This document shows, piece after piece, positions 1,700 to 27,411 of a stretch of DNA of 64,000 nt. A model generated the notes under the pieces. That model worked only from the letters and a program-made list of their open reading frames with translations. It did not search any database and was not told the DNA's origin. The position numbers were made by a program, and so were the translations under genes. The number at the start of each line of letters is the position of its first letter. Within the stretch, counting starts at the first letter, position 1. This DNA is from Coriobacteriaceae bacterium (GTDB lineage: Bacteria; Actinomycetota; Coriobacteriia; Coriobacteriales; UMGS124): NCBI GenBank assembly GCA_019421015.1, contig JAHZGC010000015.1, positions 15,795-79,794 on the forward strand, written 5' to 3'.

Positions 1700-3532
1700 T
1701 TACGCCGTCGCCAGCCGTGCGGCACCTTCGCCGGCAATGCGGCCGAAGACCGTGATGTCGGCCACGGCGGTGGTGCCCAGGCGGTTGGTGCCCATGATGC
1801 CGCCGGTCACCTCGCCGGCCGCGAACAGGCCGGGAATGACCTCGCCGTCCTCGTTGATCACGTGGGCGTCGCGGTCGATCTGCACGCCGCCCATGGTGTA
1901 GTGCACGGTGGGCGTTACGGGGAAGGCCACGTAGGGGCCCTCGCCGATGGGGAACATCTGGGCGCGGTAGCCAAACTGGCTGTCGGAGTTCTTTTCGACG
2001 TCGGCGTTCCAGGTGGCCAGGGTCTGGGCCAGCCCCTCGGGGTCGATGCCAAAGGGCTCGCAGACCTCTTCCAGGGTCTCGCCGATCACCCAGGTGCCGT
2101 TGGCGTACATGGTGGCCGTCTCGTCGTAGGTCTCGGGGGTGTAGCCCTCGGCGGCCGCGTCGGCCTCGGTCATGACCATGTAGCCCACGCCGCCCTCCTG
2201 GGCCAGGATGCCCTTGCTCACCACGTCGCGGCGCTCGAGCTCCTCCACGAAGCGCTGGCCCGCGGTGTTCACGAGCACGGCGGTGCCGCTGGTGCGCACG
2301 CCGCCGCAGTCGAGCATGGTGCCGTCGGTGGTGCTGCCGTAGGGGTGGGTCTGGATCCACTCCATGCCTACCAGGTTGGCGCCCAGCTCGGTGGCCAGCG
2401 CGATGCCGTCGCCGTCGGCTCCGCGCGAGTCGGTGCAGCGGTAGCGTTCGTCGAGCTCGGGGTCCCACTGCGAGCGCATCTGCACGTTGGCACCGAAGCC
2501 GCCGGTGGCTAGCACCACGGCCGGGGTGGCCACGGTGACCTCCTCGCCGGTGAGCTTGTCCTCCACCTTGACGCCGGTCACGGCGTCGGCCTCGTCGGTC
2601 AGGATCTGGCTCACGCGGGCGTCGTTGAACATCTGGACGCCGGCTGTGCGGGCCTTCTTGGTCAGATGCACCACCGCGCCCGCACCGTAGTCGACCGGGC
2701 AGGTGGAGCGGGCGCAGCTGTGGCCGCCGTCCTGCACCACAAAGGAGTACCAGGGCATCCCCACGTTAAAGGTGAGCCAGTTAAAGGAGTCCAGGGCGCC
2801 GTCGCACAGGGTGTGCACCAGCTCGGGGTCGCCCAGGTTGTCGCCGCCCACGAGCATGTCCTCGGCCAGGGCGTCTGCACTGTCCTCGATGCCCTTGCGC
2901 TGCTGGGCCCAGCTGCCGGGGGCCGCGTAGCCAAAGCCCGAGAGCGCCGTGCTGCCGCCAAAGATGTCGAGCTTCTCCAGGAGCACCACCGACGCCCCCG
3001 CCTGTGCCGCGCTGATGGCTGCGGCCAGGCCTGCGCCGCCGGAGCCCACCACCACGACGTCGGCCTGCTCGGGGATCGCGGCCTCGCGGGTGCGCTCGGC
3101 CTTGGGGCGCTTCTCCCACTCCGAGGTGTCCTCGCCGGCATCCTCCAGGGCCGCGGCGATGGCGGCCTTGTAGGCAAAGCTCGTGATGGTGGCACCGCTC
3201 ACGGAGTCGACGTTCAGGGTCTGGTCGCGCAGCACGAGCTCGCGGATGATGTCCTGGGCCGCGGTGCCCACGCTCAGGGTCTCGTGGGAGCGTAGCTCGT
3301 GGATGCGCACGAGTTTTCCGTCCTCGAGCGACACCTCCACGGTGAGGTCGCCGCCCTTGCCCTGGCCGGTGCCCACCCCGCCGTAGAAGCCGGGCGTGGC
3401 CGTGGCGTCGGCGCTCTCGTCGGCATAGGCGGCCGAAGCGGCCCCGAGGGCACAGGTCCCGGCGAGGGCCGCGGCCCCCGTCACGAACGAGCGGCGCGTG
3501 GTGGGGCAGGCGGGTGCGATGCGGTGCGTCAT
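1700..3532 (-). CDS. Tat-signal flavoprotein reductase: FMN-binding domain plus FAD-dependent fumarate/urocanate-reductase-like domain
   Basis: ORF 1700..3655, with the start trimmed to ATG 3532 (GGAGAG upstream). Twin-arginine signal TTRRSFVTGAAALAG. FMN_bind-type flavinylation motif DSVSGATITS. FAD motif VVVVGSGGAGLAAAISAAQAG. C-terminal GLFAAGEVTGGIMGTNRLG as in FrdA/flavocytochrome c relatives. Confidence 0.85.
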   Translation of the reverse strand: MTHRIAPACPTTRRSFVTGAAALAGTCALGAASAAYADESADATATPGFYGGVGTGQGKGGDLTVEVSLEDGKLVRIHELRSHETLSVGTAAQDIIRELVLRDQTLNVDSVSGATITSFAYKAAIAAALEDAGEDTSEWEKRPKAERTREAAIPEQADVVVVGSGGAGLAAAISAAQAGASVVLLEKLDIFGGSTALSGFGYAAPGSWAQQRKGIEDSADALAEDMLVGGDNLGDPELVHTLCDGALDSFNWLTFNVGMPWYSFVVQDGGHSCARSTCPVDYGAGAVVHLTKKARTAGVQMFNDARVSQILTDEADAVTGVKVEDKLTGEEVTVATPAVVLATGGFGANVQMRSQWDPELDERYRCTDSRGADGDGIALATELGANLVGMEWIQTHPYGSTTDGTMLDCGGVRTSGTAVLVNTAGQRFVEELERRDVVSKGILAQEGGVGYMVMTEADAAAEGYTPETYDETATMYANGTWVIGETLEEVCEPFGIDPEGLAQTLATWNADVEKNSDSQFGYRAQMFPIGEGPYVAFPVTPTVHYTMGGVQIDRDAHVINEDGEVIPGLFAAGEVTGGIMGTNRLGTTAVADITVFGRIAGEGAARLATA

Positions 3533-3676
3533 GGTGTTCTCTCCAATCGTCGATGTGCGTTTGTGCGCGGGTTCGGGTGCGAGCTCCGCGGCCCGGTGGG
3601 GGCGTGGCGTCGCTTGCTGGCCACAACGGTAGGACAGAGGGTCTAGACAAAGCATCGGTTGTGGGACGATGGGTGA

Positions 3677-5616: not shown

Positions 5617-6390
5617 CTACCTTCCGGTACCGCCCACGGCCGCCAGTTCGGCTACCACCTGGGCCGCCGCCTGCGGGTACAGCCGCGCCCTGCGTACCAG
5701 GGGAGAGGCCCCCAGCTCGTCGGAGAACCTCTCCGCCCACGGTCGCATGTGCTCGGTCGCAAAGGCGTCGCGCTCCGCCAACGCCGCGTCGCAGGAAGCC
5801 CGGTCGCCCCTGTCGAGCGCGTCGCAGGCTGCGTAGGTGAGCTCGGCCAAAAACGCCAGCTCAAAGGCCAAGTGATCGTCGGCCTCGTGGGGGTAACCGC
5901 TGGGGAGAAACCCGCGGGCCGCATAGGCCCTGCGCACCGCGAGCGTCTCGGAGCCAAAGAGCGCGCCGTCGGCCTCGAGGTAGCACGACCCCCAGGGCTG
6001 GGCTGACCTGGCCCCGGGCCTCTCAAGCAGCACGGTGTACTCGTCGCCAAGCCTGTCGAGCGTCGCGGCGGGGTCGCGCCCCCAGGCGTCGGTCAGCTCG
6101 GCGAGGGCGCGGGGAAGGGGGCCGTTGTCGGCCACGGGCACCTCGCCGTTGGCCACGGCGCCCCCGTCGCTCGGCACGTCGGCGCCGGCGCCCTCGAACA
6201 CCTGCGCCGCCTCGGGCCGGCCCAGCGCCGCGAGCAGCCCCTCGCTCGGCTTTTGGCCGAACACCGCCGCCAACAGCTCAAAGGCTCGTCCCTGCCGCTC
6301 GAGCTCTGCCGCCTGCGCTGCAGAGAAAACTCCGACCTCCGCGGTCTTCTCACCGCACGCCCTCTCGTCGCGTGCCCCCGCCGCGCCCAT
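5617..6390 (-). CDS. TorD/DmsD-family molybdoenzyme maturation chaperone
   Basis: Motif YPHEADDHLAFELAFLAELTY and the overall length fit TorD-like redox enzyme maturation proteins. The start ATG overlaps the stop of the upstream Fe-S gene (TAATG), which suggests translational coupling. Confidence 0.75.
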   Translation of the reverse strand: MGAAGARDERACGEKTAEVGVFSAAQAAELERQGRAFELLAAVFGQKPSEGLLAALGRPEAAQVFEGAGADVPSDGGAVANGEVPVADNGPLPRALAELTDAWGRDPAATLDRLGDEYTVLLERPGARSAQPWGSCYLEADGALFGSETLAVRRAYAARGFLPSGYPHEADDHLAFELAFLAELTYAACDALDRGDRASCDAALAERDAFATEHMRPWAERFSDELGASPLVRRARLYPQAAAQVVAELAAVGGTGR

Positions 6391-7013
6391 TACGCGATCT
6401 CCTCGGGGGAGTTGCCCAGGCTTCCCTCACCGCCCAGCGCGCAGAAGCGCGAGGTGCCGATGACCATCGAGGGTCCGGTGGCCTCGGGCGACGCCAGCGG
6501 CTCCAGCCATGCGCCCTCGCCGTGACGCTCGCGCAGCTCGTCGATGTCGCCCCAGTCCAGGCAGCGCATGAGGCAGGCGTCCACGCAGGCGGGGTTCTGG
6601 CCGGCGTCCACCAGGTCGCGGCACAGGTCGCACTTGCCCATCACGCCGGCGGCGCTTATGAGGTGCGGGGCGTTGTAGGGGCAGGCCTGGGCGCAGGCGC
6701 CGCAGCCGACGCAGATTTCCTGGTCCACGTAGACAATGCCGTCGTCGCGCTTGGTCATGGCACCGGTGGGGCAGGCGGCCACGCAGGCCGGGTCGGCGCA
6801 GTGCATGCACGAGACCGACACGCTGTAGGCGTACACGCCGGCGGGCACGGGCACGCCGCTGCCGTTGTCCTGCCAGCTGCCGACCTCCCAGTCGATGACG
6901 CGGCGGTACTTCTCACCTGCGGCGGAGCCGTTCTTGTCGATGCAGGCCGCCATGCAGGCGCGGCACGACCCGCAGCGGTCGGCGTCAAAGTAGAACCCAA
7001 GCTGCTTGCTCAT
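6390..7013 (-). CDS. 4Fe-4S ferredoxin-type electron-transfer subunit (DmsB-like)
   Basis: Several Cys clusters: CGSCRACMAAC, CMHCADPACVAACP, CVGCGACAQACP, CDLC...C. The N-terminus MSKQLGFYFDADRC is typical of DmsB-family subunits. Confidence 0.85.
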   Translation of the reverse strand: MSKQLGFYFDADRCGSCRACMAACIDKNGSAAGEKYRRVIDWEVGSWQDNGSGVPVPAGVYAYSVSVSCMHCADPACVAACPTGAMTKRDDGIVYVDQEICVGCGACAQACPYNAPHLISAAGVMGKCDLCRDLVDAGQNPACVDACLMRCLDWGDIDELRERHGEGAWLEPLASPEATGPSMVIGTSRFCALGGEGSLGNSPEEIA

Positions 7014-7040
7014 GAAAGTCGTCCTTTCGGGTATGGGGAG

Positions 7041-7085
7041 AAAGGCCTCGTGGCCAAGGGCCGGTCCTGAGGTCGCGAGGCCTTT
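7041..7085. other. Intercistronic stem-loop between the molybdopterin and Fe-S subunit genes
   Basis: AAAGGCCTCG (7041-7050) and CGAGGCCTTT (7076-7085) form a perfect 10-bp inverted repeat around a 25-nt loop, inside the 146-nt gap between the two genes. Confidence 0.5.
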
Positions 7086-7159
7086 TCCGCCGGGGGTTTA
7101 CGAAAACGTGGCACCGTTCCTGGAAGCGAAGCGGCGTCCTTGGGAACGTGGCGCTGTTC

Positions 7160-9808
7160 CTACTCGATTACGGGTATCACAGGGGGCTGCAGGTAGTCGG
7201 GCTCGAGCGGCTCGCCGTCCCAGGGCTCCACGTTCACGAGCACGGTGTTCGACGCGCACTGCCCCGCGCCCACCAGGATGCCGCCGGTCAGGGTGTTCAC
7301 GTTGCAGCCGCGGTCCACGCCGGTCTGTTCGTCCAGGGCGGTCCAGTTGCCCTGGCCCACCAGGACTACGCCCGGCATCACGCGCGGGGTGGTGCGCACG
7401 CGGCGCAGCGCCTGGCCGTGGTCGTTGGAGAGCAGCGCGGTCTGGCCCGACTCAAGGCCGGCGGCCGCGGCGTCGGCGGGGTTCATGAACAGGTCGTTCG
7501 AGAAGATCTCGTTCAGGCTCTTGACGTTGGGCATGGCCGAGTGGGCCTGGCGCGCCACGTGGATGCCGAGCATCTGGAAGGGGTGCGCGCCCTTCTGCTT
7601 GGCCTTCCAGTCGGCAAAGGTCTCCTCGTAGCCCTCCACGGCCGGCATGTACTTGGGGATGGGATCGATGGGCGTGGTGCCGTAGTTGTCCATGCGCTCT
7701 ACCAGGGCACGCGAGAAGATCTCGAGCTTGCCGGTGGCCGTGTCCACGGGGCACCCCTCGGGGTCGGCCTTGAAGTCGGCCAAGGCGCACCACTCCAGGG
7801 CGTCTCCCTCGCTGCGGGGCACCTGGTAGCCGCCGTTGGCGTGCAGCTCCTCCAGCGGCACGCGGCCGTCGTGGGGCTCGCAGGTCAGACCGTACTTCTC
7901 GATGTCCTCGGCGCTCACCTGGGCCAGCGGCTCCCAGCCCGAGCCGTCGGGGAGCATGACTTGGGCCTCCGCCACGAGCATGGCGGCGTCGGTCTCCTGG
8001 TCGGCCGGGGCCACGATAGCCGGGTCGATGCCCAAACGCTTGGCCAGCTCCACGTCGACCCACCAGTCGGGCTTGGCCTCGAAGCAGGGCTCTACGATCT
8101 TGCTGCCCCATACCACGGTCTCGGCGTTGATGGCGTCGGCGTAGCCGTTATCGCGCTCCCAGGGGGTGGCGATGGGCAGCACGATGTCGGCAAACTGTGC
8201 GTCGGGGCACATCACGAAGTCCGAGACCACCACGAAGTCCACCTTGCCCGGGGCCCGGTAGGCCTCGATGGCCGTGGTCTGGTCCACGTTCTGATTGAAC
8301 TGGCCGCTGGGCCCGATCTTGGCCAGGCACTTGATGTTGACCGTGCGCTCGCCGCGGGTGAAGTCGGTGTGTTTGCCGGTGAGCACAGCCTTCCAGAACT
8401 CGGCGTAGGCGATGCCGTAGTACTGCTCGGGGTCGTAGATGCCGTGCTCCAGCGCCCAGTCGCCGCGCGGCAGCGTGCAACCCACGTTCTCGATCCAGGG
8501 GGTCACGCCGTCGCCCAAGGCCACGAGCGAGCGGCTGCCCACCACGCCCTTGGAGCCGTCGGCGGTGCCTACCTCGGCGCCCGGCTCGCCCACGTTGCCG
8601 GTCATCCAGCCCACGGTGTAGAGCATGTGGGCCGTTTGGGCGCCGTTCCAAGTGCGGCCGATGGCCTGGCCGGCCTTGAGGGTCATGGGCTTCACCGTGG
8701 CCATCTGCTCGGCCAGGCTGCGGATCTGGGCCGGGTCGGTGCCGCAGATCTCGCTGGCCCACTCGGGGGTCTTGGGCACGCCGTCGTTGACGCCCAGGAT
8801 GTAGTCCTTGAAGTTCTCGGAACCATCCTCGCCCTCGGGCATGTGGTCGGCGTCGAAGCCCACGCAGTGGGTGTCCAGGAACTCCTGGTCCTGCCAGCCG
8901 TTCTCGATCATGGTGTAGGCGATGGCGGCCAAAAGCGCGCCGTCGGTGCCGGGGCGCACGGGCACCCATTCGTCGGCCAAGCTCTGGCAGCTGGGGCTGA
9001 ACCACGGGTCGACCACGATCACCTTGGCACCGGCGTCCTTGGCCTGGCGCAGGTAGTGGGTGTTGCTGCCACCCAGCGAGTAGATGGGGTTCAGGCCCCA
9101 CAGCACGATGAGCTTGGCCTTGCGCAGGCTCAGGCGGTCATTGTTGCCCTTGCCGTAGCTGCCGTTCACCGTGTTGCCCACCAGGGCCCAGCCGCCCTGG
9201 GACTGCTGGCCCCAGATGCTCGTGTAGCCGCCCGAGGCGGAGAGGATGCTCACCGGCGCGAGGCTCGGCGAGGCGATCGAGAGGTCGCCGTAGGTGGAGC
9301 GGATGCGCGTGAACTCGCTCGCGATGTAGTCGAGCGCCTCGTCCCACGAGATGCGCTCCCACACGTCGCGGCCGCGCAGGGAGTTGTCGCCCGTACCGCC
9401 CGGCTCCCAGTGCTTGCGCTTCATGGGGTAACGCAGGCGGTCGGTGCCGCATACGAGCTGACGCAGGCTGTGGCCCTTGACGCAGCTGCGCTGCTGGGGA
9501 AAGTCGGGGGTGTCGGGGTGGCTGTCGTCGGTCTTCTGGCGCACCACCAGGCCGTCGACCACGTAGGCCTTGTTGATGCAGCCGCAGTGGCAGGTCATCC
9601 AGCAGCCGGCCGTGCGCCACTCGCCGCCGTCGAGGTCCAGGGCGTCGAGCCGCTCGTCGGTGGCCTTCTCGAGCGCACGGGCCGAAGGCGCGTTCACGAG
9701 CGTGGCCCCTCCCAGGGCCGCCAATCCAGCCACGAAGTTGCGACGGGTCAGATGGGGTACGCCGGAGGCGGTGGTGCTATTGCTTTGCGTGGGTGCCGTA
9801 GGTGCCAT
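7160..9808 (-). CDS. Tat-signal molybdopterin oxidoreductase catalytic subunit, DMSO-reductase family (DmsA-like)
   Basis: ORF 7160..9874, with the start trimmed to ATG 9808 (GAGGAG upstream). Signal LTRRNFVAGLAALGGATLV. N-terminal Cys group GCWMTCHCGC (C-x3-C-x3-C, DmsA type). Large conserved MopB-like body, followed by Fe-S and TorD-like genes. Confidence 0.85.
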   Translation of the reverse strand: MAPTAPTQSNSTTASGVPHLTRRNFVAGLAALGGATLVNAPSARALEKATDERLDALDLDGGEWRTAGCWMTCHCGCINKAYVVDGLVVRQKTDDSHPDTPDFPQQRSCVKGHSLRQLVCGTDRLRYPMKRKHWEPGGTGDNSLRGRDVWERISWDEALDYIASEFTRIRSTYGDLSIASPSLAPVSILSASGGYTSIWGQQSQGGWALVGNTVNGSYGKGNNDRLSLRKAKLIVLWGLNPIYSLGGSNTHYLRQAKDAGAKVIVVDPWFSPSCQSLADEWVPVRPGTDGALLAAIAYTMIENGWQDQEFLDTHCVGFDADHMPEGEDGSENFKDYILGVNDGVPKTPEWASEICGTDPAQIRSLAEQMATVKPMTLKAGQAIGRTWNGAQTAHMLYTVGWMTGNVGEPGAEVGTADGSKGVVGSRSLVALGDGVTPWIENVGCTLPRGDWALEHGIYDPEQYYGIAYAEFWKAVLTGKHTDFTRGERTVNIKCLAKIGPSGQFNQNVDQTTAIEAYRAPGKVDFVVVSDFVMCPDAQFADIVLPIATPWERDNGYADAINAETVVWGSKIVEPCFEAKPDWWVDVELAKRLGIDPAIVAPADQETDAAMLVAEAQVMLPDGSGWEPLAQVSAEDIEKYGLTCEPHDGRVPLEELHANGGYQVPRSEGDALEWCALADFKADPEGCPVDTATGKLEIFSRALVERMDNYGTTPIDPIPKYMPAVEGYEETFADWKAKQKGAHPFQMLGIHVARQAHSAMPNVKSLNEIFSNDLFMNPADAAAAGLESGQTALLSNDHGQALRRVRTTPRVMPGVVLVGQGNWTALDEQTGVDRGCNVNTLTGGILVGAGQCASNTVLVNVEPWDGEPLEPDYLQPPVIPVIE

Positions 9809-9913
9809 GGGTCTCCTCTTCCTCTTGTTGCCGTTGGTTCGCTCTTGCTGCGATCCGGTGCCCACAATAGGCAAGGGCGTCCGGCGGCGAATCAGCGACG
9901 GGAGGTGGAGGTG

Positions 9914-11713: not shown

Positions 11714-12244
11714 TTACGACACGAACGTCGCGGGCATGGTCTCGCCCTCCAGGCGTGCCCCGCCCTTCTCGGCCGCCAGGGCCTCCATCTCCTCGATCGG
11801 GCCGAAGTGCAGGGCCTTGGTGGGGCAGGTGGCCACGCAGTGGGGCTCGTCCTCGGGGGTCTTGCCGCAGGAGGCGCACCCGTCGCACTTGTCCATCTTG
11901 CCGTCCTCGGGGCGGTACTGGGGGATCCCGAAGGGGCACACGGAGGCGCAGGTCTGGCACCCGATGCAGGCCTGCTGGTCCACCACGACCAGGCCGTCCT
12001 CCTCGCGCTTCGTGATGGCCCCGACGGGGCAGTTCTCCACGCACGCCGGCCTCTCGCAGTGGTTGCAGGCCTGGGAGGTGAACACGCGGTTCGCGTCGGG
12101 GAACTCGCCGACCCACTCCTCGGCCACGGTCCTGCGGGCCACGGTGCCCGCGGGTATCTGGTTCCACTGCTTGCAGGCCACCTGGCAGGCCCAGCACTTG
12201 ATGCAGCGGCTGGTGTCCACGTAGAAACCGTACTGTTCGCTCAT
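11714..12244 (-). CDS. 4Fe-4S ferredoxin-type subunit of the 12384-14789 molybdoenzyme
   Basis: ORF 11714..12379, with the start trimmed to ATG 12244 (GGGAGAGG upstream). MSEQYGFYVDTSRCIKCWACQVAC, CNHCERPACVENCP, CIGCQTCASVCP, CDGCASC. Confidence 0.85.
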   Translation of the reverse strand: MSEQYGFYVDTSRCIKCWACQVACKQWNQIPAGTVARRTVAEEWVGEFPDANRVFTSQACNHCERPACVENCPVGAITKREEDGLVVVDQQACIGCQTCASVCPFGIPQYRPEDGKMDKCDGCASCGKTPEDEPHCVATCPTKALHFGPIEEMEALAAEKGGARLEGETMPATFVS

Positions 12245-12292
12245 GATGGGGTACCTCTCCCTCTCTCTTGCGGGGGTTCGCCGTTTTCCAAG

Positions 12293-12377
12293 GGGAACCG
12301 TCTCTCGCAAGGCGTCGGGAGGCGATGCGTACTGGTGGTACGTGAGCCTCCCGGGAACGCGGCGAGAGACGGTTCCC
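12293..12377. repeat. Nested-hairpin repeat, family 1, copy A (between the catalytic and Fe-S subunit genes)
   Basis: Perfect 16-bp outer stem GGGAACCGTCTCTCGC / GCGAGAGACGGTTCCC. Inner stem TCGGGAGG/CCTCCCGG around the conserved core GATGCGTAC-TGGT-GGTACGTGAG. Related copies at 25887-25964 and 47151-47222. Confidence 0.75.
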
Positions 12378-12383
12378 AACTCG

Positions 12384-14789
12384 CTACGCCGGGATCTCGG
12401 ACTCGTCGAGCTTGCTGATCTTGACGAGCGTCTGCTTGGCCATGGCGGAGTGGAAGCGGTCGAACTTCTCGATCGTCGAGTCGTAGAGCACGTTGACCTC
12501 GCTGCCGCCGTCGGTGCAGCCGTAGCCGGGCAGGCCCAGCTCCTCGCAGCTCTGCCACCAGCCGCGGCGGCTCATGAGCACGTCGGGCGGAATGGTGGGC
12601 AGTACGCGTGCCACGAGCTTGACCCAGCCGTGCAGGCTCTCGACGCGGCACCAGTCGCCGTCCTCGATGCCGTACTGGGCGGCCGTGGCCGGGTTGATCT
12701 TGAACCAGGGCTCGGGCTGCATCTCGCGCAGGTAAGGGATGTTCACATAACAGCTGTGGTTGGCCAGGCGGTAGGCGTGGACGTCCGAGAACACCAGCGG
12801 GTATTCGTCCACCAGCTCGGGGGTCTCGGCGATGCCCTCGGGCGGACCCTGGTAGATGGGCAGGTAGGGAAGCACGTCGAGCTCAAGGTTGTCGAGCTTG
12901 CCGCCCATGTACTCGTTGTAGCACTGCACCTTGCCGTTGGGGAGCTTCTCAAAGAGCTCCGCGTAGCGCCGGTACTCGGGCTCGGTGGGCTCGGCGCCGT
13001 CGGTGCGCTCCACGAAGATGGAGCCCTTCTCGCGCAGCTCGTCGAGGTCGATGCCGGTGCCGTCGAGCTGCTCGCGCAGGCAGGCGTCCATGTCGCCGCC
13101 CCAGAAGTCGTCGCCGTAGCCCATGGCCACGGCCAGGTCAAGGTAGAAGTCCCAGTCGCTCTTGCCCTCGCCGATGGGGTCCACGACGACCTGGTTCATG
13201 CCGATCCAGGTGCCGGCCTTGGAGTTCTTGGTGGCGAACTGCTGGCTCGTCTCGTAGTTGGTGAGTGCCGGCAGCACGATGTCGGCGTAGTCGCACGAGG
13301 GGTTCCACGCGGTGTCGACCACCACGTAGTAGTCGAGCGCCTTGAGGCACTCGATGATCTCTTTGGGCTGGCGCGTGGCCGAGAGCGGGTTGGAGTTCTG
13401 GCCGATGACGCAGCGCAGCGGGTAGGGCTCGCCGGTCAGGATGCTCTTGAACGCCTTGTGGTAGGCGCTGGTGGGGCCGGGGCCGCCGCCAAAGGTGTAG
13501 GAGTTCTGGTACCAGCGGGGGAACTCGTTGGCCACGAGCTTGCTCATGCCGGCAGCGTAGCCCTTCTCGACGTCCTCGTCGGTGGCCTCGAGGCGCTCGG
13601 TGAGCATCGAGACGGGGTTGGTCTTGAAGAGGGGAGCGGGAGCCACCTTACCGGCGCCGCCGCCGCCCGGGATGTCGAGGTTGCCGGTGATGGCCTCGAT
13701 GAGGCAGATGCAGATGCAGGCCCAGTTGCCGTCGTTGGCCTGGTCGCCGATGCCGTTGCCGTAGAGGATGCCCATGGGCTTGGTGGTGCCCATCTTGCGG
13801 GCCACCTCAAAGATCTGCTCCTCGGGGATGCCGGTTATGGGAGAAGCCCACGAGGGCGGGAACTGCTTCACGTGCTCGGCCAGCTGGTCAAAGCCGTTGC
13901 ACCAGTTCTCGGTGAAGTCGTGGTCGTAGAGGTCCTCCTCGCAGATCACGTTAAGCACCGCAAGGGCCAGCGCCAGGTCGGTGCCGGGGCGCACGGGCAC
14001 CCAGATGTCGGCCTTGGAGCCGATGCCCTCGCGCATGGGGCGGATGTCGATGAGCTCCATGCCGCGGTCCAGGGCGTCCATGATGGCCTTGGGCTTGCCG
14101 CGGTTGATCTCGGAGTTCTCGGGGTTGGCGCCCCAGATCACCAGGAGCTCGGTCTTGTCGAGCTGGGCGGGGTAGGTGTCGGCCGGTTTGCCGATGCTGA
14201 TCACGCGGCTGGCGGCGCGCTGCATGGCGCAGATGGCGCTGTGCATGTAGTTGGGGCTGCCGTGCACGTTCAAGAAGCGACGGCCGAGCGTCTGGATAAC
14301 GGCCCACGCCTGGGGCGAGAGGATGCCCAGGCTCTCGGGGCCGTAGAGCTCCTTCTGCTCGAGCAGCTTGGCCGCGATCTCCTCGATGGCCTCGTCCCAG
14401 GTGATGCGCTCGAACTTGCCCTCGCCCTTCTCGCCCACGCGCTTCATGGGGTAGAGCAGGCGGTCGGCCGCGTAGGGCACCTGCATGGCCGAGTTGCCCT
14501 TGGCGCACAGCGAGCGGCTGCCGCGGCCCCAGTTGTTGCCGGCCTCGGGGTTGCCCTCGACGTTGGCGAAGCGGCCGTCCTTGAGGTGGCACAGCGTGGA
14601 GCAGTACGTGCAGGCGGGGCCGCACATCTGGCAGAACGCGTGGCGCACCTCGTCAGAGCCCTCGGAGCCTTCCAAGGCCTGGGCTGGACGCTCCTCGAGC
14701 CAGGTTGTGCCCCCTGTCGCCGCGAGCGCGCCGAGCGCGGCGCCGGCGGCCAAAAAGCCACGGCGGCTGAGGTTGCTCGTCATGTTCAT
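12384..14789 (-). CDS. Tat-signal molybdopterin oxidoreductase catalytic subunit (DMSO-reductase superfamily, Psr/Phs/acetylene-hydratase-like size class)
   Basis: MNMTSNLSRRGFLAAGAALGALAATGG twin-arginine signal. N-terminal Fe-S motif CQMCGPAC...C. 801 aa MopB-like protein. Substrate cannot be assigned from sequence alone. Confidence 0.85.
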   Translation of the reverse strand: MNMTSNLSRRGFLAAGAALGALAATGGTTWLEERPAQALEGSEGSDEVRHAFCQMCGPACTYCSTLCHLKDGRFANVEGNPEAGNNWGRGSRSLCAKGNSAMQVPYAADRLLYPMKRVGEKGEGKFERITWDEAIEEIAAKLLEQKELYGPESLGILSPQAWAVIQTLGRRFLNVHGSPNYMHSAICAMQRAASRVISIGKPADTYPAQLDKTELLVIWGANPENSEINRGKPKAIMDALDRGMELIDIRPMREGIGSKADIWVPVRPGTDLALALAVLNVICEEDLYDHDFTENWCNGFDQLAEHVKQFPPSWASPITGIPEEQIFEVARKMGTTKPMGILYGNGIGDQANDGNWACICICLIEAITGNLDIPGGGGAGKVAPAPLFKTNPVSMLTERLEATDEDVEKGYAAGMSKLVANEFPRWYQNSYTFGGGPGPTSAYHKAFKSILTGEPYPLRCVIGQNSNPLSATRQPKEIIECLKALDYYVVVDTAWNPSCDYADIVLPALTNYETSQQFATKNSKAGTWIGMNQVVVDPIGEGKSDWDFYLDLAVAMGYGDDFWGGDMDACLREQLDGTGIDLDELREKGSIFVERTDGAEPTEPEYRRYAELFEKLPNGKVQCYNEYMGGKLDNLELDVLPYLPIYQGPPEGIAETPELVDEYPLVFSDVHAYRLANHSCYVNIPYLREMQPEPWFKINPATAAQYGIEDGDWCRVESLHGWVKLVARVLPTIPPDVLMSRRGWWQSCEELGLPGYGCTDGGSEVNVLYDSTIEKFDRFHSAMAKQTLVKISKLDESEIPA

Positions 14790-15943: not shown

Positions 15944-17467
15944 CTAGCGGCTGGCCGCCTGCTCGCCGGCGATGCGCCCGAAGATCAGGCAGTCGGCCAC
16001 CGACGTGCCGCTGCCGGGGTACTCGCCGTAGATGCCGCAGGACGAGCGGCCGGCGGCATAGAGGCCGGCGATGGGGTTGCCGTCCAGGTCGAGGACCTCG
16101 GCGTTGGCGTTGATACGCAGGCCGCCCAGGGTGTGGAAGCCGGGGATGACGGGGCCGTAGTCAAAGGCATAGAACGGGGCCGTGCGCACACCGGTGCCCA
16201 GGTACACGCTGTCCTTGCCCCAGTCGGAGTCGGTGCCTTCGTCGCACAGCTGGTTGTAGCGCTCTACCGTGTTGGCGACGTTGGAGACCGGGAGCCCAAC
16301 CGCCTCGCACAGCTCTTCGAGGGTATCCGCCTCGGCTGCGATGGTCAGGCGGCTGTCGTAGCCCTCCTCCTGCAGCTTGGCCCAGGTTGTGGCGTCTATG
16401 ATGGCGTAGGTGTTGTCGATAAGCTGGGTGGTTGTCGCGCGGCCGACCCAGGCGCCGTACCAGTCTTCGGCGGCGAAGCGCAGGCCGTTCCAGTTCACCA
16501 GCACGCCTTCGGGCAGCGAGCCGAGTGCGTAGAGGTTCTCCGAGACGTTCATGCGCGACATTGAGCGCGTGGCGGCGCCCAGTTTCATGGCCATGAGGAT
16601 GCCGTCGCCCGTGTCGGTGGGGGTGCCCACGCGGCCGCGGCACAGAAGGCCCTCGGGGGCATAGTTGGCGAGCATCTCGTCGTTGTAGCAGAAGCCTCCG
16701 GCGGCGATAACCACGCCCTTGCGGGCCTCGACGGCCACGGTGTTGCCGTCGGTGTCGATCGCCAGGACGCCCGTCACGGCTCCGTTCTCGTCGCATACTA
16801 GCTCGGTGGCGCGGGTGTTGTAGAGTGCCTTGCCGCCCTCGACCACCCTGGACTCGAGGGCGTCGCAGATGGCGGCGCCGCCGCCGTTGGGGGTGTGGCC
16901 GCGCGGGGCCGGCTCGGCGATGGCGGCATAGGGGATGGCGCGCTCGTTGCCCGAGTAGGTGAGGCATACGCCCTCGGGGGCGATGACCACGTGCCTCTCG
17001 ATCTCCGCGTCGCCCTCGAACGTGATGCCCTTCTCAACGAGCCAGTCGAACAGGTCGAGGTTGTTAGCGCAGAACACATCGAGTAGCTCGGGGTCCGAGC
17101 TCGGGCCCAGGGCCGCGTTCAGGTAGGCCTTCATGGCGTCGGTTGAGTCCTTGACCCCAAAGCGTTCTTGGACGGGCGTGCCTCCTCCCAAATATACCAG
17201 GCCGCCGCATATGCGCGTCGAGCCGCCGCCCTGCTCGTTGCACTCGATGGCGATGACCGAGGCCCCCTTGTCGAGGGCGGCCACGGCGGCGGCGTCGCCG
17301 GCACCGCCGAGTCCGATGACCACGACGTCGGCGCTGTCGTCCCACGTTACGTCGGTGCTTGCGGCCGCGTGGGCTTGCGGGATGGCTGCGAGGGCGCAGG
17401 CGGCGGCTCCTGCGCCTGCGCTGGAGATGAACGAGCGGCGGGAAACTGCCATAGGCTTAGATGACAT
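15944..17467 (-). CDS. Tat-signal FAD-dependent flavoprotein reductase (fumarate-reductase / KstD-like family, no FMN_bind domain)
   Basis: ORF 15944..17623, with the start trimmed to ATG 17467 (CAGGAGGAA upstream). MSSKPMAVSRRSFISSAGAGAAACALAA signal. DVVVIGLGGAGDAAAVAALDKG FAD motif. C-terminal GLYAAGRSSCGIYGEYPGSGTS. Confidence 0.85.
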   Translation of the reverse strand: MSSKPMAVSRRSFISSAGAGAAACALAAIPQAHAAASTDVTWDDSADVVVIGLGGAGDAAAVAALDKGASVIAIECNEQGGGSTRICGGLVYLGGGTPVQERFGVKDSTDAMKAYLNAALGPSSDPELLDVFCANNLDLFDWLVEKGITFEGDAEIERHVVIAPEGVCLTYSGNERAIPYAAIAEPAPRGHTPNGGGAAICDALESRVVEGGKALYNTRATELVCDENGAVTGVLAIDTDGNTVAVEARKGVVIAAGGFCYNDEMLANYAPEGLLCRGRVGTPTDTGDGILMAMKLGAATRSMSRMNVSENLYALGSLPEGVLVNWNGLRFAAEDWYGAWVGRATTTQLIDNTYAIIDATTWAKLQEEGYDSRLTIAAEADTLEELCEAVGLPVSNVANTVERYNQLCDEGTDSDWGKDSVYLGTGVRTAPFYAFDYGPVIPGFHTLGGLRINANAEVLDLDGNPIAGLYAAGRSSCGIYGEYPGSGTSVADCLIFGRIAGEQAASR

Positions 17468-17802
17468 AGGTGCGTTCCTCCTGTTTGTACGGGTCTGTGC
17501 GAATCGTCGCAGGCGTGTGCCTACGGTCGATCGGTTGACTGGGCGTAATCTGACCAATGTGGTTCGAAAGAGAGGGGTCGATATTTTCTTCGGGTATACC
17601 GGGTCTAACGTCCGCTGCGGCATGCCCTACGGTACTATGGTCTTGCTGCGCGCCGCAATCGTCCGCACTCGTTTTTGCACGCTCACCCGGACGTGTCTTT
17701 ACGGCGTTGCCTGCAGATGAGGGGCTCATCCAAACGGATGACCCCGCTTGGCCGTGGGGTTTGTGCCGGGCGGGTGAGGGATAATAGGGACGAGACAGCT
17801 GG

Positions 17803-19202: not shown

Positions 19203-20786
19203 CTATGCTCCCAGATCCTCCACCATGTCGAGCAGCCCCTGGCGATTGCGGACGCCCATCTTTTGGTAGATGTGCCGCGTGTGGGTGCTTACCGTGCCCT
19301 GCGAGATGTGCAGCTCCTCCTGGATGCGGGCTATGGTGCGTCCTTTGATGATGAGCGGCAGCACCTCGGCCTCGCGCGGGGTGAGCCCGTAGCGCCCTGC
19401 GAGCAGGCTGGCCACGGCGGCGGTGCGGTCCTCGCGCGGCGCGGACGTCCCGTCCCCTCTTTCGGCGGTGTCGGGCTCGCGGTAACCCTCTGCGCTCCCG
19501 CCCTCTTCGTCGGTCATCTCGCCGAGGCTCGTCTCGGTCAGGTCCTTCTCGGTGAAGAGAAAGAGGTTTGCGACCACGATGATTAAGGTGAGCACCAGGG
19601 CAACGACGTTCAGATGGGCCACGCCCATCCCCATGACGTCTACAAGCAGATGGCCCAGGCCGTTGCCGGCCAGCTCCCCGGCGTACAGGGCGCAGAAGGC
19701 AAGGCCAAAGGTGCGCGTCGCATATTGGTCGAAGTAGTTGCTGATGTCGATGCACACCGCGCTCAGGACCACGGCGAAGGCCGTGTACGCCCCAAAGACG
19801 ACCACGTTCGAGTAGATGAACGAGCCTCCGAACACGAAGGGCGTCATGAGGCAGCCCACGGCCATGAGCAGGGTGGTCGCCCGGTAGGCGTAGGTCACAA
19901 AGCCGTGTTTGCAAAAATGGGCCACGGCGAGGGCCACGGCAACGACGGCCACGACGCCCAGGGCGAGCAGGACCTCGTAGTGCTGGGGCACAGGAACGAA
20001 CTTGAACCCCGTGAGCACGTCTGAAAAGCCCGCCACCAGGCCAAACAGTGCGCAGGCCGCCAGGCCGCGGGCGAACATGCGCCGGGTGCGCCGCATGAGC
20101 CCGTGGGGGCGCGCAGGACGGGGCCGCTCCGGTCGGTGGAAGGCGGCCCGACGCAAGAGCCATCCCGAGGCGCCCACGCCGAGCAGCACCGCCACGCTTG
20201 CGGCCAGCGGGGGTACCAGCGAGAGCACGATGTCGAGCGCGGCCGCCGCCATCCAGGCGAGCGATATCTCGGCCATGGCGCGGCGGGCCCCCACATCGCT
20301 GTAGAGGCGTCCCCAGCCCAAAAAGAGCGTGCCCGAAGCGAGGCCGGTGCCCACGGCACTCACCACGATGAGCACCGCGCTCAGGCCCTCGATGGAGTTC
20401 ACGAACAGAAGCAGCGACGTGGAGGCCACCAGGGCCGCGGTGGCGCCTGCGATGACGTTGCGCGAGAGCACCCGCTTGTCAGAGTTGCGCACGGCAAAGG
20501 AGAAGGACCCCAGCGCCACGGCGAGCAGGGCCAGGGAGAGCATCTGGTCAAAGTAGAGCACCGGCCGTGTCTCCCCCTCGGCCGAAAGAAAGAAGAACGT
20601 GTTGTAGAAGATGGCGCACAGCCACAGGTTGTACAGCGCGTAGCCCGCGATGCGCAGGGCCGAGAGCGGCCGGGGTGTGGCAGGTCCCGCCTCGCCGCCG
20701 CGCGTCTGCAGGACGTCGGCCGACGGCGTGCTGCGGTTTTTTTCGGCCATGGCGGCGACGCTGCGGCGCACTCCTGCGATGCCCAT
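19203..20786 (-). CDS. Membrane-anchored LuxR-family transcriptional regulator
   Basis: ORF 19203..20819. ATG 20786 is preferred as the start (GGGAGAGAGGGAA upstream). Multi-TM body. C-terminal YGLTPREAEVLPLIIKGRTIARIQEELHISQGTVSTHTRHIYQKMGVRNRQGL. Divergent from the 21236 operon. Confidence 0.8.
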   Translation of the reverse strand: MGIAGVRRSVAAMAEKNRSTPSADVLQTRGGEAGPATPRPLSALRIAGYALYNLWLCAIFYNTFFFLSAEGETRPVLYFDQMLSLALLAVALGSFSFAVRNSDKRVLSRNVIAGATAALVASTSLLLFVNSIEGLSAVLIVVSAVGTGLASGTLFLGWGRLYSDVGARRAMAEISLAWMAAAALDIVLSLVPPLAASVAVLLGVGASGWLLRRAAFHRPERPRPARPHGLMRRTRRMFARGLAACALFGLVAGFSDVLTGFKFVPVPQHYEVLLALGVVAVVAVALAVAHFCKHGFVTYAYRATTLLMAVGCLMTPFVFGGSFIYSNVVVFGAYTAFAVVLSAVCIDISNYFDQYATRTFGLAFCALYAGELAGNGLGHLLVDVMGMGVAHLNVVALVLTLIIVVANLFLFTEKDLTETSLGEMTDEEGGSAEGYREPDTAERGDGTSAPREDRTAAVASLLAGRYGLTPREAEVLPLIIKGRTIARIQEELHISQGTVSTHTRHIYQKMGVRNRQGLLDMVEDLGA

Positions 20787-20963
20787 GCGGTTCCCTCTCT
20801 CCCGTGATGGGGCAAGCATACCTCATAGGGGCCGCCCGTTTCTCCCGGCGGCCGTGCAAAGGTGTCGCAACTTTTTATGATAGGTGCCCGGCGCGTGCCG
20901 CACGGGGGGCTCGCCTGCGGTGCGTCTGCCAGAACGGCGGGGCGGCCCCTGTGGGGTGCCCGG

Positions 20964-21005
20964 GACGCTTAATAGATAAAAAACAAGGCGTTTACCTGCG
21001 TCGAT
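20964..21005 (+). promoter_or_regulatory. Candidate promoter/operator box upstream of the 21236 operon (site 4)
   Basis: GACGCTTAAT..GGCGTTTACCTGCGTCGAT in an A+T-rich patch, about 236 nt upstream of the ATG. It carries TTTACCTGCG in gene-sense orientation plus a GACGCTTA block, as in sites 1 and 2. Confidence 0.35.
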
Positions 21006-21235
21006 TCAGGTCAATCAGAATAATTTACGATGTCTTTCTCGTGCCTTTATCACGCTTCTTCATGACTTCAAAACTTCCGCTCATAACTCTCGGAGATGTG
21101 CGGCGGCCCCCGGGCCGGCAAACTGTGGAACCAGCGTCGCGATGCCGCCCGCAGGTGCCCGGAATCACCGGGGCGGCCGTGACGCCCCCGATTTACACGA
21201 GCACCACCTACGAGAAGGAAGAGAGAGGAGAGGGA

Positions 21236-24217
21236 ATGGGACGACTGAATCTCACGCGTCGAGACTTCGTCAAGGCCGCCGCCGTCACCGCCGCCGCTGC
21301 TGCGTTTGCAGGTGGCACAACGGCTGCCCTGGCCGAGGTCGAGCACGCTGAGACCATCACGACCATCATGGACACCGACACGATCGCCGTTAAGACCTGC
21401 TGCCGCGGCTGCGGCAAGATGGAGTGCGGCGTGAAGGTCATCGTCAAGGACGGCCGTGCCATCCGCGTGGAGGGCGACGAGGGCGCCTACCAGTCGATGG
21501 GCAACTGCTGCACCAAGAGCCAGTCCTCCATCCAGGCCGCCTACCACCCCGACCGCCTGCTCTACCCCATGAAGCGCACCAACCCCAAGGGCGACAACGA
21601 CCCGGGCTGGGTCCGTATCAGCTGGGACGAGGCCATCGACACCATCTGCACCAAGATGAAGGAGATCCAGGACCAGTACGGCGGAGAGGCCATCGCGCTG
21701 GAGGTCGGTACCTCGCGCATCTGGTGCATGCATGCCGAGTCCTGCCTCAAGATCCTGTTCAACACCCCCAACAACCTGGAGGCTTGGCAGATCTGCAAGG
21801 GCCCGCGCCACTTTGCCACCTCGAACTACGCCGACTCCTGCCGCACCACCGTCGACGTGGCCACCCGCGCCGACGTGCACATCTCGGTCGACCCGCGCCA
21901 GGCCAACCTGGGCAAGGAGGCCGACTACTGGCAGTCGCTGCGCACCGGCACCGACGGCGCCCTGGCCCTGGCCTGGACCAACGTCATCATCGAGAACGGC
22001 CTGATCGACGAGCTCTACACCAAGAAGTGGACCAACGCCCCGTTCCTGGTGTGCGAGGACATCGAGCCGAGCGGCTTCCCGGTGAACCTGAACGACGGCT
22101 CCTACTACGACCTCAAGACCCGCCTGCTCAAGGAGTCCGACGTCGTCGAGGGCGGCTCTCCCTACAAGTTCTTTGTGCACGACGACAACTGGGAGGCCCT
22201 CAAGGCCGACGGCATCGAGCACCAGTACGGCGAGTTCACCTGGTTCAACGCCGACCAGGAGGGCGTCATCGACAACACCGGCGGCTTCTGGGAGGGCGAG
22301 AACTACGACTCCATGAGGGCGCGCGAGGGCAAGGAGGCCAACCAGGCCAACCTGCTCAAGGGCCAGACCCAGGGCCACGTGCCGGATCTGATGCCCTTTG
22401 ACCCGGCCATCGACCCCGCCCTCACCGGCGAGTTCGAGATCGAGCTCAAGGACGGCAAGAAGCACAAGGTGCGCCCGGTCTGGGAGTACTACCGCGAGCG
22501 CGCCGCCGAGTTCTCGCCCGAGATCGCGGCCGAGATCACCGGCATCCCCGCCGAGGAGATCGTCGCCGCGGCCACGGCCTATGGCACCCGCATCGACCCG
22601 GAGACCGGCTACGGCAACGGCGGCATCCAGTACATGCTCGCCATCGAGCACGCCTGTAACGCCATCCAGAACTGCCGCGCCCTCGACAACCTCACGGGCA
22701 TCACGGGCAACATCGACATCCCCGGCGGCAACCGCTCCACCACCATCGTCCCGATCGACGGCGACCTGCAGGGCTTCGGCGCCTGGGTCCCCGGCGCTTC
22801 TCAGCCGGCCCCCGAGGTCAACGCCAAGCAGCTCGGCCGCGAGCCCTTCCCCGTGCTCGGCTGGTGGGGCAACTGGGCCGACATGAACACCACGTTCAAC
22901 GCGATGCTCACCGGCGAGCCCTACCCCGTGCGCGCCCTGTGGAACGAGTCGGGCAACTTCATGTGCGCCTGCAACTCGACCTTTGCCTGGGAGGCCCTGA
23001 ACTCGCTCGACTTCATGGTCGACCTGAACCTGTGGCACGCTCCCTCCACCGATGCGGCCGACATCATCCTGCCCGTCGCCCACTGGATCGAGCTCTCGAG
23101 CCCGCGCGCCAGCCAGGGCTCGGCCGGCGCCATGGGCGCCACCGTCAAGTGCGTGGAGCCGCCGGCGGAGGCCCTGTACGACCCCGAGATCGTCATGAAG
23201 GTCTACGAGGGCATGGGCGTGCCCTGGACCAACGAGGAGGGCAACGAGTGGCCCGACATCAACTGGCAGCTCGACGACTCCATCAAGCTCTTCTCCGACG
23301 AGGAGTACATCAAGCAGTACTGGACCGTTGAGAACGGCCAGGTCGTGAACGTGGAGCAGAAGGGCAAGCCCTTCAGCGAGCTCAAGCCCAAGTACGAGCA
23401 CTGGGCCGACTACGTGCGCGACTTCCAGAACAACGGCTGGTGGCAGGCCAAGGATGTGGAGCCCGAGATGTGGGGCACCTACCGTCGCTACCAGACCGGC
23501 GGCTTCCGCGGCCGCGACAAGCTCTGGGCCCGTCTGGACTGCACCTCCGGCCTGCCCGGCGTGGGCGACTGGAAGCCCGGCTTCTTCACGCCCACGATGA
23601 AGCAGGAGATCTGGTCCACGGTCATGGAGACCTACATGCCCGACCACCCCGAGTGGGTGCTGCCCAGCTGGGAGGAGGGCCCCCACGGCCCCAACTCGGC
23701 CGACGCCGAGGAGTACCCGCTCACCTGCACCACCGGCCGCCGCATCCCGGTGTACTTCCACTCCGAGCACCGTCAGCTGCCCTGGTGCCGCGAGCTGTGG
23801 CCTGTGCCCCGCGTCGAGATCCATCCCGAGACCGCCGCTGAGTACGGCATCGAGCAGGGCGACTGGGTGTGGATCGAGACCCCCTACGGCAAGATCCGCG
23901 AGTGCGCCGACCTCTACTACGGCGTGGACCGCAAGACCATCAACTGCGAGCACACCTGGTGGTACCCGGAGGTGCAGGATTCCGGCCACGGCTTCCAGCT
24001 CTCCCAGGTCAACCAGCTCATCGACCGCAACGCCCAGGACCCGATCTCGGGCACCTCGAACCTGCGCGCCTACCAGGTGAAGATCTACAAGGCCACGCCC
24101 GAGAACTCGCCGTTCGGCAACCCCGTTCCCTGCGACTCCAACGGCGTCGAGATCATCCACGACGCCAGCGACCCGCGCCTCAAGGAATGGCTGCCCACCT
24201 ATGAAGGGAGGCTCTAA
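21236..24217 (+). CDS. Large (993 aa) Tat-signal molybdopterin oxidoreductase catalytic subunit, DMSO-reductase superfamily
   Basis: The real start is ATG 21236 (GAGAGAGGAGAGGGA upstream) inside the 1216-aa track ORF. MGRLNLTRRDFVKAAAVTAAAAAFAGG signal. Fe-S motif CCRGCGKMEC...CC. Followed by Fe-S and membrane subunits. Confidence 0.85.
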   Translation: MGRLNLTRRDFVKAAAVTAAAAAFAGGTTAALAEVEHAETITTIMDTDTIAVKTCCRGCGKMECGVKVIVKDGRAIRVEGDEGAYQSMGNCCTKSQSSIQAAYHPDRLLYPMKRTNPKGDNDPGWVRISWDEAIDTICTKMKEIQDQYGGEAIALEVGTSRIWCMHAESCLKILFNTPNNLEAWQICKGPRHFATSNYADSCRTTVDVATRADVHISVDPRQANLGKEADYWQSLRTGTDGALALAWTNVIIENGLIDELYTKKWTNAPFLVCEDIEPSGFPVNLNDGSYYDLKTRLLKESDVVEGGSPYKFFVHDDNWEALKADGIEHQYGEFTWFNADQEGVIDNTGGFWEGENYDSMRAREGKEANQANLLKGQTQGHVPDLMPFDPAIDPALTGEFEIELKDGKKHKVRPVWEYYRERAAEFSPEIAAEITGIPAEEIVAAATAYGTRIDPETGYGNGGIQYMLAIEHACNAIQNCRALDNLTGITGNIDIPGGNRSTTIVPIDGDLQGFGAWVPGASQPAPEVNAKQLGREPFPVLGWWGNWADMNTTFNAMLTGEPYPVRALWNESGNFMCACNSTFAWEALNSLDFMVDLNLWHAPSTDAADIILPVAHWIELSSPRASQGSAGAMGATVKCVEPPAEALYDPEIVMKVYEGMGVPWTNEEGNEWPDINWQLDDSIKLFSDEEYIKQYWTVENGQVVNVEQKGKPFSELKPKYEHWADYVRDFQNNGWWQAKDVEPEMWGTYRRYQTGGFRGRDKLWARLDCTSGLPGVGDWKPGFFTPTMKQEIWSTVMETYMPDHPEWVLPSWEEGPHGPNSADAEEYPLTCTTGRRIPVYFHSEHRQLPWCRELWPVPRVEIHPETAAEYGIEQGDWVWIETPYGKIRECADLYYGVDRKTINCEHTWWYPEVQDSGHGFQLSQVNQLIDRNAQDPISGTSNLRAYQVKIYKATPENSPFGNPVPCDSNGVEIIHDASDPRLKEWLPTYEGRL

Positions 24218-24220
24218 GCT

Positions 24221-24907: not shown

Positions 24908-24910
24908 GCC

Positions 24911-25801: not shown

Positions 25802-25886
25802 CTGCTTGCTTCGCGTGAGCCGCCCGGTCCTCCCCGTGGGCCGGGCGGCCGCGAAAGCCTCTGGTGAGGTACTGGCGATTTGTGGC

Positions 25887-27328: not shown

Positions 27329-27411
27329 GGCTCGCGTGCGGTGAGTGCTTCCCGGAGTAAAAAACCAGCCGAGGGTGCGATGGCCAGGGCTGGCGATTTG
27401 GCCCGGATTAC

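Follow-up and report, generated by a model that had tools for sequence, protein, structure and literature searches.

The window, a 64,000-nt stretch of a Coriobacteriaceae genome, carries three operons that encode molybdopterin oxidoreductases along with Fe-S subunits and two NarJ-like chaperones (5617-9874, 11714-14789 and 20567-29341), together with three FAD_binding_2 flavoprotein genes (1700-3655, 15944-17623 and 34096-35757), a gene content typical of Eggerthellaceae. In the catalytic ORF at 20567-24217 a TAT signal first appears at residue 228, so the true start of this ORF is probably later. The window also holds a tmRNA gene (53025-53380, minus strand, 157.7 bits), a tRNA gene (38679-38752, plus strand) and an IS256/Mutator-family transposase gene (41102-42397, minus strand; Pfam Transposase_mut, E 1e-96), the ends of which show no similarity to the hairpin elements described below. 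The interval from the transposase gene to a MarR-family gene (42917-43444) contains four units of about 27 nt (GGAC(A/G)G.ATC..GACTTTCT.GACCG, 42520-42766), two direct and two inverted, which could be operator sites or IS-end repeats, and beside them lies a palindrome of G and C runs, GGGGGGGGAGGGGGCATGCCCCCTCCCCCC, at 42457-42492.

Three copies of a nested hairpin, here called A, B and C, are dispersed in the window (Table 1). The sequence-only reading had proposed a common core for them, and we found an exact 23-nt match, GATGCGTACTGGNNGTACGTGAG, at 12324-12346 (plus strand), 25915-25937 (minus strand) and 47176-47198 (plus strand), with no match in 100 dinucleotide-preserving shuffles. The strings AAGGCG and GAACGC frame the inner stems as had been described, with AGGCG in copy B. 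The inner stems differ between the copies yet are fully paired (TCGGGAGG/CCTCCCGG, CGCAGGCG/CGCCTGCG and CGCGAGGG/CCCTCGCG), and the outer stem of copy A is indeed a perfect 16-bp pairing. All three copies fold at -45 to -66 kcal/mol on either strand, with z-scores of -4.1 to -8.5; the better-folding strand, which we call the GATG strand, is the plus strand for copy A and the minus strand for copy B. A truncated second copy precedes each of A, B and C. The core can also be read as a mini-ORF, ATG CGT ACN NNN NGT ACG TGA (M-R-T-x-x-T), at 12325-12345 and in the other exact cores, which needs a 5-nt loop, and we judged it coincidental because the frame is lost in the 4-nt-loop variants.

Table 1. 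Hairpin elements of the window and the genes next to them, with model scores where available.
Feature	Position	Strand	Score, source or detail
4Fe-4S subunit gene, downstream of copy A	11714-12244	-	Pfam
Molybdopterin oxidoreductase catalytic subunit	12384-14789	-	Pfam
Partial copy 5' of copy A	12270-12290	+	3'-arm-like gcgggggttcgcc plus linker gttttcca; truncated
Copy A, full element	12291-12378	+	R1 96.8 bits, E 7e-19
Copy A, outer stem	12293-12308/12362-12377		
Copy A, AAG	12309-12311		
Copy A, GCG/CGC pairing	12312-12314/12358-12360		
Copy A, inner stem	12315-12323/12346-12354		
Copy A, G.A/A.G and bulged T	12324-12326/12344-12345		
Copy A, apical stem	12327-12332/12338-12343		
Copy A, loop	12333-12337		
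Copy A, GAA bulge	12355-12357		
Copy B, full element	25883-25970	-	R1 76.9 bits, E 1.5e-14
Half-copy beside copy B, truncated near the apex	25980-26009	-	plus strand reads ggcggccagtag gcgttc tgcacctc tcag
Sister-subfamily copy (formerly a second family)	29372-29458	+	R1 78.3 bits
Partial copy 5' of copy C	47122-47142	+	ggcgagacgg plus linker acacccgataa
Copy C, full element	47143-47230	+	R1 85.8 bits; core 47176-47198
Desulfoferrodoxin (dfx) gene	47238-47615	-	Pfam
Second sister-subfamily copy	47805-47890	+	R1 43.2 bits
Terminator-like hairpin between a plus-strand gene and the tmRNA gene	52837-52893	+	R1 24 bits

Copy A had been placed between the catalytic and Fe-S genes of an operon, and Pfam agrees with both assignments; the stop codon of the catalytic gene is 6 nt from the 3' end of the copy. 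Copy B had been described as lying between anchor and polyferredoxin genes. The downstream gene is ferredoxin-like (Fer4; 26046-27278, plus strand), and the claimed anchor encodes 296 aa with no Pfam match (24911-25801, plus strand). A separate G+C-rich hairpin (25803-25835) stands right after the stop codon of this 296-aa gene, ahead of copy B. Copy C lies in the dfx 3' UTR, as had been thought likely, 8-15 nt past the desulfoferrodoxin stop codon and before a terminator at 47071-47101, a G+C-rich hairpin of the canonical kind that dfx shares with the convergent gene for an ABC transporter. Copies A and B, in contrast, are internal to operons. In all three cases the orientation relative to the upstream gene is the same, and the mRNA of that gene would carry CTCACGTAC...GTACGCATC.

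A covariance model, R1, built from 53 related copies, detected five members of the family in the window with E-values between 7e-19 and 4e-7. The three copies counted at first sight are real, but there are five members rather than three because what had been set aside as a second family falls in the same superfamily. The sister copy at 29372-29458 keeps the AAGGCG..GAACGC frame, has the apex GCGGTGTGC-CGGA-GCACATAAG with two compensatory pairs and is sense to its flanking genes, and the other, at 47805-47890, is in the divergent promoter region between dfx and a D-Tyr-tRNA deacylase gene; both break the orientation rule seen for copies A to C. This second repeat family also has a weak partial match at 59159-59197. 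In related loci the AAGGCG...GAACGC frame occurs with further variant tips, for example GATGTGTAC-TGGA-GTACATGAG, where a C-G pair is replaced by U-A. The loop and stem of the terminator-like hairpin ahead of the tmRNA gene contain GGTTCCCAACTCG, 13 nt identical to the 3' end and tail of copy A, and this hairpin is possibly an element remnant or a target-like site. The earlier reading had not recognised the family, and a check against Rfam 15 gave no match in any lineage tested: in the window only the tmRNA and tRNA reached the gathering threshold, with generic miRNA-hairpin matches alone below it, and nothing was found in 10 loci from other lineages. Literature searches with the core strings returned primers only, those on REP/RAYT in Coriobacteriia and on G.A-hairpin repeats returned nothing matching, and the module was not found in the viral contigs, plasmids and E. 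coli genomes searched. The repeat family is new as judged by these searches, none of which matched it to a known family.

We then applied the structure written from copy A to the alignment of the 53 copies (A1). Standard pairs were formed in 94.7% of the cells, both sides had changed in 25 of the 34 pairs and 9 of 9 inner-stem pairs covaried, although these counts, like those of strand asymmetry given below, are not independent events because the copies share descent. None of 500 shuffles reached the observed values, and when the partner was slid by 1-3 columns as a control, 28-49% of the cells were paired. The compensatory changes claimed from three copies are thus real in 53. Selection on the operon mRNA is not borne out as their cause, as it is the complement of the mRNA that is favoured by the fold energies and by the oppositions G.U, G.A and G.G. 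Templated repair between the arms of a DNA palindrome can be an alternative source of covariation.

The asymmetry between the strands was found throughout the family. In the inner stems of Coriobacteriia, read on the GATG strand, sporadic mismatches were G.U in 11 cases and A.C in none; three G.U positions are fixed, as are the G.A pairs. Across phyla, the non-Watson-Crick oppositions of the inner stem were A.G (61), G.A (27), G.G (27), G.T (21) and T.G (10), with the reverse types C.T (3), T.C (3), C.C (6), C.A (11) and A.C (5). Of 105 copies among the matches listed, 98 had the more stable fold in the GATG strand, with a mean gain over the complement of 3.2 kcal/mol in Coriobacteriia and of 8.5-13.5 kcal/mol elsewhere. 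It is this strand that is antisense to the adjacent gene, that is, complementary to the neighbouring mRNA. A fixed orientation relative to transcription had been proposed from the three copies, and it holds more widely: co-directional contexts in Coriobacteriia, taken from codon-aware gene calls, were antisense in 14 cases and sense in 2, and those of one Desulfobulbia type (type 1) were antisense in 8 and sense in none, with one locus (L028) sense by eye, the gene calls in these loci having been made for this analysis and being crude for mid-GC genomes. The 3' end of the GATG strand lay 1-9 nt from an opposite-strand stop codon in 23 Coriobacteriia cases, and its 5' end was at a sense stop codon once only. 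Proteobacterial copies lie next to stop codons in the same way in 10 of 11 cases, and so do many of those from Desulfobulbia.

Tolerated insertions are to be found near stop codons because 3' UTRs and intercistronic gaps are short, which leaves the orientation unexplained. A DDE-type MITE should insert either way round, so the bias suggests selection. Possible causes are selection against the more stable strand in the transcript, against the GATG strand on the non-template strand, against the GATG strand on the lagging-strand template, or for some activity of GATG-strand RNA. In the window, GC skew tracks gene direction and does not tell an effect of replication from one of transcription.

The elements are inserted DNA that varies between strains and recombines with one another. 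In orthologues of the catalytic subunit next to copy A (62-80% identity), the distance from the stop codon to the start of the Fe-S gene is about 0-25 nt. In the window it is 139 nt, and the surplus consists of copy A and its truncated second copy, so that the partial copy also belongs to the inserted DNA. The spacer between dfx and the convergent ABC-transporter gene measures 105, 172 or 196-201 nt in strains with identical Dfx, and recombination between repeated GCC-GCGTTC-CGC segments accounts for the differences among its alleles. Copy C is recombinant too: its 5' arm comes from one tandem copy ('Y') and its 3' arm from another ('X'), which is why the outer arms do not match. Polymorphism for presence or absence at orthologous sites, a mark of MITEs, was found for the copy A operon and the dfx spacer. 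Copy B showed no variation among nine contigs, and a further search for empty sites of copies A and B yielded only identical alleles or a single short contig. Head-to-tail arrays of the elements, joined by linkers of about 10 nt, are seen in related Coriobacteriales genomes; the gene-distal member of an array is regularly a 5'-truncated copy, and across the Coriobacteriales loci there are about 25 orphan 3' arms and very few orphan 5' arms. The pattern of one copy plus one 5'-truncated copy fits a rolling-circle or retroposition model, and it is equally explained by erosion at the gene-distal end of an array together with recombination. Larger variants occur in seven Coriobacteriales loci (L005, L015, L029, L053, L059, L094 and L101); some have an apical stem of about 20 bp (gatgtgcgcggtgcgggcctttgg...ccaaaggtgcgcaccgcgcgtgag), others bear an additional side hairpin (cacggagcgccctttgcgacgagtcccgtg) ahead of GAACGC, and the GAUG/UGAG loop is retained in all of them.

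We further studied how widely the hairpin tip is distributed. The exact 18 specified bases, GATGCGTAC-N5-GTACGTGAG, were found at at least 108 genomic loci, against about 17 estimated by chance. Among the matches listed, most are at the apex of long hairpins in lineage-specific multicopy families, and a few fall within coding sequence and are due to chance. The lineages among these matches are Coriobacteriales, two Desulfobulbia types, Rhizomicrobium and other Alphaproteobacteria, Nevskia, Pseudodesulfovibrio, Family XIII Firmicutes, a Clostridia/Bacteroidaceae type, Paracaedibacteraceae and a Yanofskybacteria genome; some bin labels, such as Acutalibacteraceae, are probably mis-binned Coriobacteriia contigs. 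A C precedes the core in 92 of 98 distinct copies among the matches listed, and the motif is therefore C-GAU-GCGUAC...GUACGU-GA-G, comprising a C-G pair, tandem G.A/A.G pairs, a bulged U, a G.U pair and a loop of 4-5 nt. Below it stands a variable stem of 8-9 bp framed by AAG-GCG and (G/C)AA-CGC. The 8-bp 'inner stem' of proteobacterial copies consists of more tandem G.A pairs (CGAGGAGC/GCGACGAG), and the AAGGCG/NAACGC frame is retained. The neighbouring genes vary as well. The link to molybdoenzymes that the sequence-only reading drew from the window does not extend to the family, as related copies from several phyla adjoin genes of many kinds, those for ABC transporters and histidine kinases among them. 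All-against-all clustering of the ORFs near the elements, in search of a partner protein, returned only ABC transporters, histidine kinases and spurious ORFs over the repeats.

The elements that carry this tip differ between lineages. Outer stems are inverted repeats of 13-26 bp in all copies, and the families of Desulfobulbia and Alphaproteobacteria each have outer sequences of their own and are present many times in a genome. Desulfobulbia type 1 consists of elements of about 152 nt bounded by GTAACTATTCAGC...GCTGAATAGTTAC, with 13-bp terminal inverted repeats; in 8 of 13 copies the two 8-nt flanks agree at 7 positions or at all 8, and they did so in none of the controls that paired the flanks of different copies. 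GTAAGCG inverted repeats with 8-bp direct repeats are a hallmark of the IS66 family (PMC11946415; PMC12888890). The type-1 carrier is a classical transposon-derived MITE, and no full-length IS between GTAA ends was found in the loci examined. Desulfobulbia type 2 starts with GTAAGCGGTCACAGGG, and one copy has an 8-bp duplication, CTTGTCGT. Several Desulfobulbales type-2 elements (L056, L091, L104, L072 and L108) have a second repeat of about 55 nt (gcacccagagggtataagtttcgctagggcagacaagctgcccagctcagctat) at one and the same point of the left arm, in tandem in L091, which is one repeat nested inside another. In Rhizomicrobium, about half of the copies have TA on both flanks. Neither a target-site duplication nor an IS-like or clean terminal repeat nor a cognate transposase was found for copies of the Coriobacteriia type, A, B and C among them. 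Since the ends differ among Desulfobulbia, Coriobacteriia and Rhizomicrobium, the module rides in carriers with different ends.

We compared these elements with known classes of dispersed repeats. Like REPs and REPINs, they are extragenic, multicopy, imperfect palindromes that fold in one strand and lie at gene ends and inside operons, by analogy they may stabilise the upstream mRNA, and they form inverted doublets in a few lineages (L003, L040 and L083). REPs are species-specific, and their cognate RAYT/Y1 gene is single-copy and often REP-flanked. The centre of the present elements, in contrast, is conserved across phyla. A REP is described as an imperfect palindrome of 20-40 nt with a GTAG or CGTC head (PMC3733652); the elements here are nested hairpins of 88-150 nt without a conserved GTAG or CGTC at either end, and the Coriobacteriia-type arrays are head-to-tail rather than inverted doublets. 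REPIN-like mobile hairpins had been named as one option from the window, and this is the closer of the two options offered with respect to the insertions, the strain variation and the inverted repeats with 8-bp duplications of Desulfobulbia; a REP/RAYT system is not supported, however, as the GTAG/CGTC head is lacking and tblastn with an IS200 TnpA query, a weak test, found no Y1 transposase in about 1 Mb (the window and the loci).

MITEs with IS66-type ends resemble the elements in that the whole element folds as a hairpin, presence varies by strain, and in the relatives from Desulfobulbia terminal inverted repeats of the form GTAA(G/C).. go together with target duplications of 8 bp. Correia, RUP and ERIC are functional analogues among MITEs. 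MITEs and REPs normally conserve their ends and not their centre, and a near-invariant apex is unusual. The copies in the window, by contrast, show neither target duplication nor IS-like ends, the conserved part is the centre, which is common to carriers with different ends, the fold is strand-specific, and one orientation prevails beside stop codons. There is also an analogy, and no more than an analogy, with integron attC sites, which likewise are imperfect palindromes right after an ORF, vary in sequence while keeping their structure, have unpaired bases that mark one strand, and fold in the strand complementary to the coding strand. The attC boxes are R'' RYYYAAC and R' GTTRRRY. By reading, the elements have no such boxes, their ends being GCGGAAC.. 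and ..GTTCCGC or GTTCTG with pyrimidines at purine positions, and unlike attC they are dispersed at ordinary gene ends without integrase or attI context. A dispersed terminator-like repeat has been described that looks like a hairpin with a U tract after genes (PMC10969869); in contrast to it, the present elements have a U tract in the Coriobacteriia type only, fold better in the non-transcribed strand, and occur in operons and upstream of a true terminator. Nor do they have the make-up of an intrinsic terminator, as a terminator scan finds none at copy A and flags only a 5-pair sub-hairpin at copy C, the real dfx terminator lying beyond the element. Again by reading, a K-turn is rejected because the 3-nt bulge that it would have 5' of a G.A pair is absent, and the similarity to loop E/sarcin-ricin, the hammerhead core and group II domain V is superficial only.

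Given that the hairpins stand after stop codons and that their tip recurs in several phyla, mobile DNA is a likelier explanation than a regulator of molybdoenzyme operons. At a probability of roughly 0.6, we propose that copies A, B and C and the two sisters are palindromic, non-autonomous repeats akin to MITEs and REPs, with a conserved and strand-specific hairpin module at their centre. An alternative that we consider improbable is a cis-acting mRNA signal, acting in processing, stability or attenuation, that sets how much of the upstream subunit is made relative to the downstream one. Such a signal would agree with the fixed orientation relative to transcription, with the site directly past the stop codon of the upstream cistron, with the presence of copies A and B within operons, and with the mRNA-sense strand of copies A to C, which still folds at -45 to -63.5 kcal/mol. 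It does not agree with the non-Watson-Crick positions and energies that favour the other strand, with a proteobacterial inner stem that is half C.U/U.C in the mRNA, with insertions that are recent and missing from orthologous operons, or with unrelated neighbour genes in many phyla, and tandem arrays and truncated copies are ill-suited to a tuned signal. The location just past stop codons would also suit mobile or duplicated intrinsic terminators, like SPRITE of S. pneumoniae, that are kept for ending transcription. Consistent with these, gene-sense TTT(T) follows the Coriobacteriia hairpin (TTTTTAT in copy C, TTTGCTT in copy B and GTTT(T)AG in relatives), and in one locus (L060) the element occupies the entire gap between two convergent stop codons. 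However, the U tract is missing from copy A, where no terminator is predicted, and from the proteobacterial and Desulfobulbia copies, dfx owns a canonical terminator past copy C, copies A and B are inside operons, and the transcript strand, which should fold best in a terminator, does not; we therefore regard this possibility, too, as quite doubtful.

A different question is whether the GATG strand has a function of its own, as a small structured RNA or an ssDNA site that mobile elements carry passively, for example as an insulator against antisense transcription, a protein-binding decoy or a self-processing RNA. The tandem-G.A apex is near-invariant across phyla while the carriers differ, stability is strongly strand-specific, and the variants that enlarge the apical stem or add a side hairpin keep the GAUG/UGAG loop; a classical MITE that moves as dsDNA has no obvious need for a strand-specific fold. 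Moreover, the sense orientation is avoided in co-directional pairs even for the classical MITEs of Desulfobulbia, which suggests that GATG-sense RNA has an activity. Against this, no promoter-like site was found ahead of the elements, no Rfam family and no associated protein were found, and the strand is antisense to its neighbours, so that its transcription is only putative. This reading appears unlikely to us on balance. More broadly, and still tentatively, the tandem-G.A hairpin might be a functional RNA or ssDNA module that is recognised by a factor which very different bacteria share or which is passed between them, rides in at least two kinds of carrier in at least five phyla, and is tolerated beside genes only if the mRNA does not contain its folding strand. 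If this is true, the module would define a new class of elements that depend on orientation; it might, for instance, block antisense transcription, act as an RNA that binds a protein or processes itself, or be a new signal for single-strand transposition.

Under the proposal of MITE/REP-kind repeats, the folded GATG strand, as ssDNA or RNA, would be recognised by a factor, either a mobilising enzyme or a conserved host protein, and this recognition, rather than mRNA regulation, would keep the stems paired. The hairpin module would then be the unit under selection, probably through its recognition as a single-stranded nucleic acid. Copies would survive only at tolerated sites, between a stop codon and the next signal, and mainly in the orientation that gives the mRNA the weaker-folding strand; those between subunit genes would be there because insertion is limited to few tolerated sites. 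An effect on mRNA stability, read-through or subunit ratio is plausible by analogy, since the mRNA gains a very stable hairpin after the upstream cistron: as a by-product, this hairpin could slow 3' exonucleases or cut read-through, as REPs do, and so shift the subunit ratio.

The 23-nt tandem-G.A tip is near-invariant in Coriobacteriia, Desulfobulbia, Alphaproteobacteria, Firmicutes and candidate phyla, with a constant strand and a constant position relative to the stop codon. A shared tip under such a rule is atypical of REPs or MITEs and points to a partner, a host factor or a mobilising enzyme; its conservation across phyla and the rule of strand and stop codon are the interesting part of these results. 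For the respiratory operons of Eggerthellaceae, repeat families should be checked before intergenic hairpins are called dedicated regulators. In gut Eggerthellaceae, these stable hairpins have been inserted between genes that are translationally coupled in relatives, and they may therefore alter subunit expression.
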